The notes under the pieces: model-generated
What the model was told of the DNA's origin: nothing
Databases searched by the model: none
Seen by the model: only the letters and a program-made list of their open reading frames with translations
Virus record (IMG/VR): IMGVR_UViG_3300017700_000931
Location: 1 to 64,000 of that record
Direction: 5' to 3' (one strand)
DNA from: a virus
Lineage: Duplodnaviria > Caudoviricetes
DNA: 64,000 bases
Position numbers and translations under genes: made by a program
Shown: positions 13,389 through 13,476 of the stretch, one piece after another
How positions within the stretch are numbered: the stretch's first letter is position 1
Layout of the letters: the number at the start of each line of letters is the position of its first letter

Positions 13389-13431
13389 ATAGTTTATCTA
13401 TTGACACTCGTAACTTGAATAGCCGAGTGCC

Positions 13432-13476
13432 TTAACGTTTCTTTTTCTTTTTGCAGATAAATTTAGTTGTTTTCAT
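13432..13476 (-). CDS. poly-Lys leader peptide MKTTKFICKKKKKR
   Basis: 14-aa uORF followed by hairpin 13403-13431, then three tRNA-Lys. Confidence 0.65.
   Translation of the reverse strand: MKTTKFICKKKKKR

Follow-up and report, generated by a model that had tools for sequence, protein, structure and literature searches.

Within the tRNA operon of a giant phage with a genome of 362 kb, the first tRNA-Lys gene was preceded by a lysine-rich mini-ORF, a hairpin abutting the stop codon of this ORF and a short spacer. Together these elements formed a module of ~130 nt that was retained in all eight lineages in which the locus was found. The 3′ half of the hairpin (region 2) was about as complementary to nucleotides 1-13 of tRNA-Lys as to the 5′ half of the hairpin (region 1). 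The module is tentatively read here, at somewhat less than an even chance, as a four-segment switch in the style of trp and ermC, in which the acceptor stem of a tRNA would take the place of the terminator. We infer that the mini-ORF is translated and that lysine is sensed.

The window, that is the whole stretch of 64,000 nucleotides analysed, represented the first 64 kb of a complete virus record of 362,532 bp with direct terminal repeats. It had a GC content of ~32%. ARAGORN and Rfam identified one SRP RNA and 53-54 tRNA genes, the latter confined to the minus strand. Based on 338 real starts, the genes of this phage lacked Shine-Dalgarno sequences and showed A-rich upstream regions. Together with the TAnnTTTG motif in the promoter of the tRNA operon, these starts fit a Bacteroidota host. 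The sequence matching this Bacteroidota -7 promoter motif, TATCTTTG, was located at 16203-16210 (-), with the primary leader ORF following ~50 nt further downstream. No TAnnTTTG-type motif was present upstream of the Lys mini-ORF, and the module is therefore probably co-transcribed with the operon. The primary leader ORF comprised 31 codons, Lys codons among them, and began with MNLTFV-TYQPKQYTQGGKP-.... A primary leader-peptide attenuator was present at the operon head in at least six lineages, namely the window and at least five others. The term 'second-tier', used for the Lys module in a preliminary description of this DNA, was thus appropriate, since the module was located downstream of an attenuator that itself contains Lys codons. 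The coordinates of all features are given in Table 1.

Table 1. Features of the Lys module and its surroundings in the window
Feature	Position	Strand	Basis or remark
Primary (first-tier) leader ORF MNLTFVTYQPKQYTQGGKPSRSGMLYLMGIE	16003..16153	-	Followed by 12-bp hairpin and U7 terminator; heads the same operon
A-rich, unstructured 5′ untranslated region separating the mini-ORF from the preceding tRNA-like RNA	13477..13505	-	Sequence
Mini-ORF, 14 codons and TAA, peptide MKTTKFICKKKKKR	13432..13476	-	Sequence; ORF kept in 8/8 lineages
Run of five Lys codons, AAA AAG AAA AAG AAA (codons 9-13)	13438..13452	-	Sequence
Region 1, hairpin 5′ half GGCACUCGGCU	13421..13431	-	Fold, covariation
Region 2, hairpin 3′ half AGUUACGAGUGUC	13403..13415	-	Complementary to region 1 and to tRNA-Lys nt 1-13
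A/U-rich spacer AAUAGAUAAACUAU, 14 nt, tRNA 5′ leader ending in U(-1)	13389..13402	-	Sequence
tRNA-Lys(UUU) no. 1, canonical, proposed target	13317..13388	-	ARAGORN; Rfam 66.5 bits
Region 3 GCACCCGUAGCUC, nt 1-13 of tRNA-Lys no. 1 (5′ acceptor strand, U8-A9, 5′ D-stem strand)	13376..13388	-	Pairing computations
tRNA-Lys(UUU) no. 2, canonical, without a module of its own	13229..13302	-	ARAGORN, Rfam
Third Lys-like tRNA gene, atypical	13134..13224 (approx.)	-	Rfam, partial, 29.5 bits at 13142-13198

The mini-ORF consisted of ATG (13476-13474), AAA ACA ACT AAA TTT ATC TGC AAA AAG AAA AAG AAA CGT and TAA (13434-13432), and its last Lys codon was positioned 9 nt upstream of the hairpin. With a score of 9.25, its start context exceeded essentially all of the 338 real starts of the genome. 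The DNA at the module was 61% A, so that Lys codons were cheap. Read in frames 0, 1 and 2, the mini-ORF of the window contained 7, 3 and 2 Lys codons, respectively, and across the lineages frame 0 exceeded the other frames 2-5-fold in Lys codons. Composition-matched shuffles of this A-rich DNA produced an ORF with 8 or more codons and its end 0-3 nt from the hairpin in 1.5% of the trials, and one at least as rich in Lys in 0.025%. The corresponding values across the lineages were 0.7-2.6% and 0.02-0.5%.

These values bear on the view that the ORF is accidental and the region an untranslated spacer or scar, its hairpin being a processing or stability signal or the remnant, left by a mobile element, of a partial tRNA 5′-end duplication. 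This explanation is regarded as very improbable. It draws on the A-rich DNA, in which Lys codons are common, and on the 17-mer opening the window ORF, which was also present in more than 100 other, unrelated viral contigs. Region 1 moreover resembles the tRNA 5′ end, as a duplication would, and a PD-(D/E)XK endonuclease gene was present in the operon of lineage L002. However, Lys codons were enriched in frame 0 only, and start, frame and stop were kept in 8/8 lineages despite indels, against the low shuffle chance per lineage given above. The hairpin sequence has turned over, yet the hairpin still abuts the stop codon and matches the tRNA, which is unlike a decaying scar.

A dnaX-type -1 frameshift site was rejected. 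In the window, AAA AAG was preceded by C or G, and no slippery heptamer was conserved in the relatives. At the ORF ends (13432-13452 in the window, and alike in the relatives), repeated basic-x-basic motifs of the types KxK, KRK and RKR were observed. In resistance leader peptides, macrolide-bound ribosomes are reported to arrest at '+X+' motifs of this same type (PMC12583479). The likeness of the mini-ORF ends to these motifs may be a coincidence or a second sensing input.

The hairpin (13431-13403, -) comprised 11 bp and began at the base directly after TAA. Its outer stem, GGCACUCG / CGAGUGUC, was formed by positions 13431-13424 paired with 13410-13403, to which RNAfold added an inner GCU/AGU stem, a UA bulge and a 5-nt loop. 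The minimum free energy in the window was -13 to -14 kcal/mol, with z values of -2.6 to -3.5 relative to shuffles. Stop-abutting hairpins, defined by -8 kcal/mol or stronger at 0-3 nt after the stop codon, were found in only 17 of the 338 real genes (5%). Rfam 15 returned nothing at gathering score or at E <= 1 for positions 13389-13476. The lack of a U tract had already been noted, together with the conclusion that the hairpin is not a classic intrinsic terminator. Both points held, as the terminator scan was empty here and no U tract followed the hairpin in 8/8 lineages, ruling out an intrinsic terminator. A terminator on the plus strand, with the Lys codons as its U-rich tract, was also dismissed. 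The proximal 8 nt were U-poor in most lineages, the scan was empty, genes and tRNAs of the examined region were all on the minus strand, and the conserved ATG and frame would be unexplained.

Three tRNA-Lys genes had been described behind the Lys ORF and the hairpin. The ORF, the hairpin and two canonical tRNA-Lys genes were recovered, but the third gene was atypical. Its anticodon loop (CUUUUAA) and T arm were normal, and an insertion of ~18 nt separated D arm and anticodon stem. It was not called by ARAGORN, and its detection by Rfam was weak (29.5 bits). In lineage L097, at ~8251-8310, the tRNA behind the module was Lys-like with a CUUUUAA loop, apparently lacked a T arm and was likewise not called by ARAGORN.

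Relatives of the locus were located with two anchors, the glutaminyl-tRNA synthetase (GlnRS) 1-3 kb downstream and then the UVR-motif protein just upstream of the operon. The phage GlnRS of the window was encoded at 10843-12459 (-) and matched phrog_12136 with E = 7e-179. Its identity was 72% to the copy of L002 and ~51% to the GlnRS of Escherichia phage D6. The gene directly upstream of the operon (16259-16816, -) encoded an acidic protein of 185 amino acids with a UvrB/UvrC motif (PF02151). It remained beside the tRNA operon in 8/8 lineages and was the best anchor for relatives. The GlnRS anchor yielded one useful sister genome among viral contigs and, in metagenomes, only loci without the operon, mostly with GlnRS at 51-58% identity. 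Altogether, the anchors provided seven further lineages on ten contigs, amounting to eight lineages on 11 contigs with the window. Exact-pattern scans and a widened anchor alignment added no new lineages, and tRNA-Lys was not found in the whole records L003-L007. A covariance model (R1) built on four lineages placed the other four correctly, but with scores of 18-30 bits, near noise; its 17-row alignment was left out of the pair counts. The lineages are related and do not represent eight independent trials; the hairpins correspond to about four independent groups. Peptides and duplex energies are compiled in Table 2.

Table 2. Mini-ORF peptides and computed duplex energies of the eight lineages (1:2, region 1 with region 2; 2:3, region 2 with tRNA-Lys nt 1-13)
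Lineage	Peptide	1:2 (kcal/mol)	2:3 (kcal/mol)	Shuffle P for 2:3
W (window)	MKTTKFICKKKKKR	-12.7	-12.7	0.012
L002	MKTLLKLKHKCKQ	-13.0	-20.2	<0.001
L090	MKNLLKLKHKSKQ	-12.5	-12.9	0.031
L091 (peptide of L091-94)	MKTIKNIKNKR	-9.2	-10.4	0.029
L095	MKTIKNIKSKQ	-7.2	-6.0	0.040
L098	MKTIKKIKNKQ	-12.8	-8.6	0.061
L096	MKKIFKIKRKQ	-14.3	-8.4	0.21
L097	MIKRKRKR (Lys and Arg alternate)	-16.5	-9.1	0.36

The order of mini-ORF, stop-abutting hairpin, spacer of 5-15 nt and first tRNA-Lys was present in 8/8 lineages. The mini-ORFs comprised 8-14 codons with 31-50% Lys. Lys was positioned at -2 and -4 from the stop codon in all eight lineages and at -6 in six of them, with Arg or Gln at -1. The stop codon was TAA in seven lineages and TAG in one, at a distance of 0-3 nt from the hairpin. 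Start and in-frame stop were retained throughout despite insertions and deletions of codons. The location of the Lys genes in the operon varied: they followed two odd tRNA-like RNAs in the window, L002 and L090, the first tRNA-Pro in L091 and L098, and tRNA-His in L095. The module relocated together with them and was always found before the first tRNA-Lys. Its presence in all lineages and its movement with the Lys genes support the earlier proposal as far as a specific link to tRNA-Lys is concerned. The proposed location at the distal end of operon 1, by contrast, was not conserved, as the module of L091 and L098 lies right after the first tRNA-Pro.

The hairpins fell into four groups of unrelated sequence, whereas position and stability were kept (-9 to -18 kcal/mol across the lineages, with z values of -3.5 to -5.2 in 7/8). 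As judged from these sequences, the hairpin sequence was replaced at least three times. Within the group of the window, 95.5% of the cells were paired and three pairs were changed on both sides, compared with 23-44% for slid controls. ORF identity among L091, L095 and L098 was 89-92%, that of the adjacent tRNA was 61-65%, and the anchor proteins showed 39% identity in two of the three pairs and 71% for L091 and L098. Between subgroups, the nucleotide identity of these short, A-rich ORFs was at the level of shuffles; the features survive and the sequence does not. A census covered 140 tRNAs in the eight loci and selected those with a mini-ORF whose end is followed within 0-3 nt by a hairpin at least as stable as -8 kcal/mol. 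It returned 8/8 Lys modules and four unrelated, non-cognate matches. A cognate codon content of at least 25% was observed only before tRNA-Lys. In a genome-wide census of this phage, no other internal tRNA carried such a unit. Among the viral contigs with the 17-mer that opens the window ORF, a tRNA came after it in this clade alone.

The conservation of ORF, start context and stop would also be expected for an ordinary small-protein gene, whose basic peptide of 8-14 residues would act in trans, perhaps as an RNA binder or through interference with a host factor. In that case, tRNA-processing enzymes would cut out a mini-mRNA of ~110-130 nt, and the hairpin would protect its 3′ end from exonucleases. 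One small basic ORF already known from a tRNA operon is tpr in tyrT of E. coli. Hydrophobic positions were conserved beside Lys in the recurring peptide pattern M-K-x-[ILT]-x-x-[IL]-K-x-K-[RQ], and the high ORF identity within the subgroup of L091, L095 and L098 points in the same direction. Codon sensing gives no reason for the conservation of the Ile/Leu and Thr positions. A small protein nevertheless appears unlikely. Most differences within subgroups were non-synonymous, and the ORFs ranged in length from 8 to 14 codons, a picture that appears unlike selection on a peptide sequence. The ORF was never found away from tRNA-Lys, and a small protein would leave this constant attachment unexplained. 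It would also account neither for a hairpin at 0-3 nt after the stop codon, an arrangement limited to 5% of the real genes, nor for the match between the 3′ half of the hairpin and the tRNA 5′ end.

This match was characterised by duplex computations (Table 2). The 2:3 pairing was about as strong as the 1:2 pairing in five lineages (W, L002, L090, L091 and L095). It was significant in 5-6 of the 8 lineages and did not exceed the shuffles in L096 and L097. In the alternative helix, the partner of the conserved hairpin UA bulge is U8-A9 of the tRNA. Compared with 139 other tRNA 5′ ends, region 2 preferred the 5′ end of its own tRNA-Lys over 93-100% of them in 7/8 lineages. Swapping the tRNAs among only the eight Lys lineages gave no significant preference of 2:3 for the cognate partner (P = 0.07). 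The wider nulls, i.e., other tRNA 5′ ends and shuffles, superseded this swap, and its result stays a caveat. The clearest case was L095, with a unique tRNA-Lys acceptor, GGCUUCA. Its hairpin, CCUUCAA/UUGAAGG, matched its own tRNA and that of no other lineage.

Folding was also computed for a transcription intermediate in which region 1 was masked and the tRNA 3′ strand was not yet made. In this masked fold, pairing with region 2 or the spacer involved 5-9 of tRNA nucleotides 1-9 in 8/8 lineages (8 of 9 in the window). In the unmasked full precursor, none of the first 9 nucleotides were paired in this way in 7/8 lineages, and the computed ground state consisted of hairpin and cloverleaf. The masked and unmasked folds thus differed in 7/8 lineages, indicating mutually exclusive helices.

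In the four-segment switch proposed here, segment 1 would be the 5′ half of the hairpin, beginning 0-3 nt after the stop codon, segment 2 its 3′ half, segment 3 nucleotides 1-13 of tRNA-Lys and segment 4 the 3′ acceptor strand of the tRNA. With plentiful Lys-tRNA, the ribosome would reach the stop codon and draw segment 1 into the mRNA channel. The freed segment 2 could then pair with the 5′ end of tRNA-Lys as it is being transcribed and keep the acceptor stem from forming, and the tRNA would not be matured or would be delayed. With scarce Lys-tRNA, for example after cleavage of host tRNA-Lys by an anticodon nuclease, the ribosome would wait at Lys -6, -4 or -2, just short of where it would open the hairpin. 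The hairpin would be left closed with 1:2 formed, the tRNA would fold, and RNase P could process it. Slow reading of Lys codons is thus predicted to raise the amount of phage tRNA-Lys.

The geometry of this scheme is based on textbook dimensions of the ribosome footprint, by which a ribosome holds ~12-15 nt of mRNA downstream of the first base in its P site. When the last Lys codon (-2) occupies the A site, region 1 would be positioned at the channel entrance, and a stalled ribosome would therefore leave the hairpin closed. Once the stop codon has reached the A site, the ribosome would enclose 6-9 nt of region 1, and region 2 would be free. Hairpin and cloverleaf being the ground state, 2:3 could exist only as a kinetic trap, and an irreversible step such as degradation or mis-processing must therefore be assumed. 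Only the first of the two or three Lys tRNAs would be directly affected under the model.

The preliminary description had placed the effect of the module in Rho access, processing or stability. The pairing of region 2 with the tRNA 5′ end falls under processing and agrees with that part. Rho access, by contrast, is unlikely, because the stable hairpin is followed by only 5-15 nt before the structured tRNA, leaving no room for a rut site. The same spacing weighs on a Lys sensor that acts on transcription, in which the hairpin would pause RNA polymerase and a ribosome on the Lys codons would block Rho or release the pause. The evidence from ORF, hairpin and linkage applies equally to such a sensor, and tnaC is a precedent for ribosome-blocked Rho access. 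Counted from the start of the tRNA, the window has G, U and G at positions -10, -1 and +1, respectively, a pattern that resembled an elemental pause, but these bases were not conserved in L002 or L090. ORF and leader were also poor in C (6-17%), and the complementarity between region 2 and the tRNA would be unexplained. A transcriptional sensor is therefore held to be decidedly unlikely. None of the rival explanations accounts jointly for the adjacency of stop codon and hairpin and for the complementarity to the tRNA.

The proposed translation-gated switch shares its logic with several known systems. Like the trpL, hisL and thrL attenuators, it contains a short ORF rich in the codons of one amino acid, here a predicted ORF with 31-50% Lys in eight lineages. 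As in trpL-type attenuators, the position of the ribosome would select between 1:2/3:4 and 2:3, and starvation for the charged tRNA would turn the output on; the computed folds showed mutually exclusive helices suited to selection by a ribosome. In contrast to these attenuators, the Lys module has neither a terminator between leader and genes nor a U tract, and its 3:4 helix would be the acceptor stem of the regulated tRNA. Its sensing codons are located upstream of segment 1, so that the non-stalled ribosome would trigger 2:3. Its output would be a tRNA and not an enzyme operon, and it is located inside an operon and not at its head. Lys-codon leaders are known before lysine-biosynthesis genes, and Tsubouchi and co-workers reportedly described one for the lysine cluster of Thermus thermophilus in 2005.

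Translational attenuation of ermC and cat likewise operates after initiation and without a terminator. There, a ribosome on the leader ORF covers one segment, the freed partner re-pairs, and the availability of the downstream element changes. The output of ermC is a ribosome-binding site and its trigger a drug-stalled ribosome, whereas in the Lys module these would be the tRNA 5′ end and the speed of Lys decoding. No sequestered ribosome-binding site with an ORF was located downstream of the module, where the gene is a tRNA. Because the defining terminator or ribosome-binding site is absent, the module stands outside the trp and ermC families despite the same logic.

The primary leader attenuators of the same phage also contain a mini-ORF in the amino acids of the downstream tRNAs and an A-rich start without Shine-Dalgarno sequence. 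They comprise ~30 codons for several amino acids and a hairpin with a U6-8 terminator at the operon head, whereas the Lys module has 8-14 codons, senses only Lys under the model, lacks a terminator, is operon-internal and can, by computation, pair with the tRNA itself. In tnaC, a ribosome near the leader stop codon similarly decides the fate of the downstream RNA, and an intrinsic terminator is not needed. It differs in having an unstructured rut site by the stop codon and a long spacer, where the Lys module presents hairpin and tRNA within 32-44 nt. An unstructured, C-rich Rho loading site was not found in the module, in which a hairpin of -9 to -18 kcal/mol follows at 0-3 nt and the C content is 6-17%. 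Among very short ORFs of phage transcripts and tRNA operons, the lambda bar minigenes and tpr of tyrT are also comparable, as there is an interplay between their translation and the tRNA pool. The mechanism of the bar minigenes, which comprise 2-3 codons, is peptidyl-tRNA drop-off, and tpr is located downstream of tRNAs. Neither has a tRNA-matched hairpin abutting the stop codon. A literature search found no paper on a leader peptide or mini-ORF controlling a tRNA gene, or on an acceptor stem as output helix.

Anti-phage nucleases are known to attack tRNA-Lys (PMC11464382, PMC10264068). Both PrrC and AriB of PARIS cleave the tRNA-Lys of the host, and phage tRNA-Lys can rescue infection (PMC10264068, PMC11464382), which gives the model a biological sense. 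Translation-gated tRNA folding might then serve as a cis-acting anti-defence sensor that perceives the loss of host tRNA-Lys, the preferred substrate of anticodon nucleases, via slow Lys decoding, although this function is rather doubtful. The phage would answer the lost host tRNA-Lys by releasing its own. Phage tRNA genes are usually viewed as passively expressed supplements. If the model is true, tRNA genes can have dedicated cis-regulators, and giant phages gauge the translation state of the host codon family by codon family. Leader-peptide logic would then act on RNA folding and processing, beyond terminators and ribosome-binding sites, and the anti-defence sensor would be of a kind undescribed for any tRNA gene.

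Further elements were observed in the operon near the module. A 94-amino-acid ORF without a family match was located inside the tRNA operon of the window (14107-14391, -). The equivalent insertion place in L002 (7115-7495) held the PD-(D/E)XK endonuclease (PF11645, E = 1.6e-25). From the sequences, this operon position with differing protein genes looks like a hotspot for mobile endonuclease genes. Two long tRNA-like RNAs were located just upstream of the module at 13506-13609 and 13615-13766 (-). They were not called by ARAGORN or Rfam, the best Rfam match being Ref68 with 16.7 bits and E = 0.2. Both comprised an acceptor stem and a T arm enclosing non-tRNA inserts, and both were kept in L002 (7497-7790) and L090 (12808-13090). 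The larger one contained CUAAGUACGUAUUAGGU, which was invariant between the window (13684-13668) and L002.
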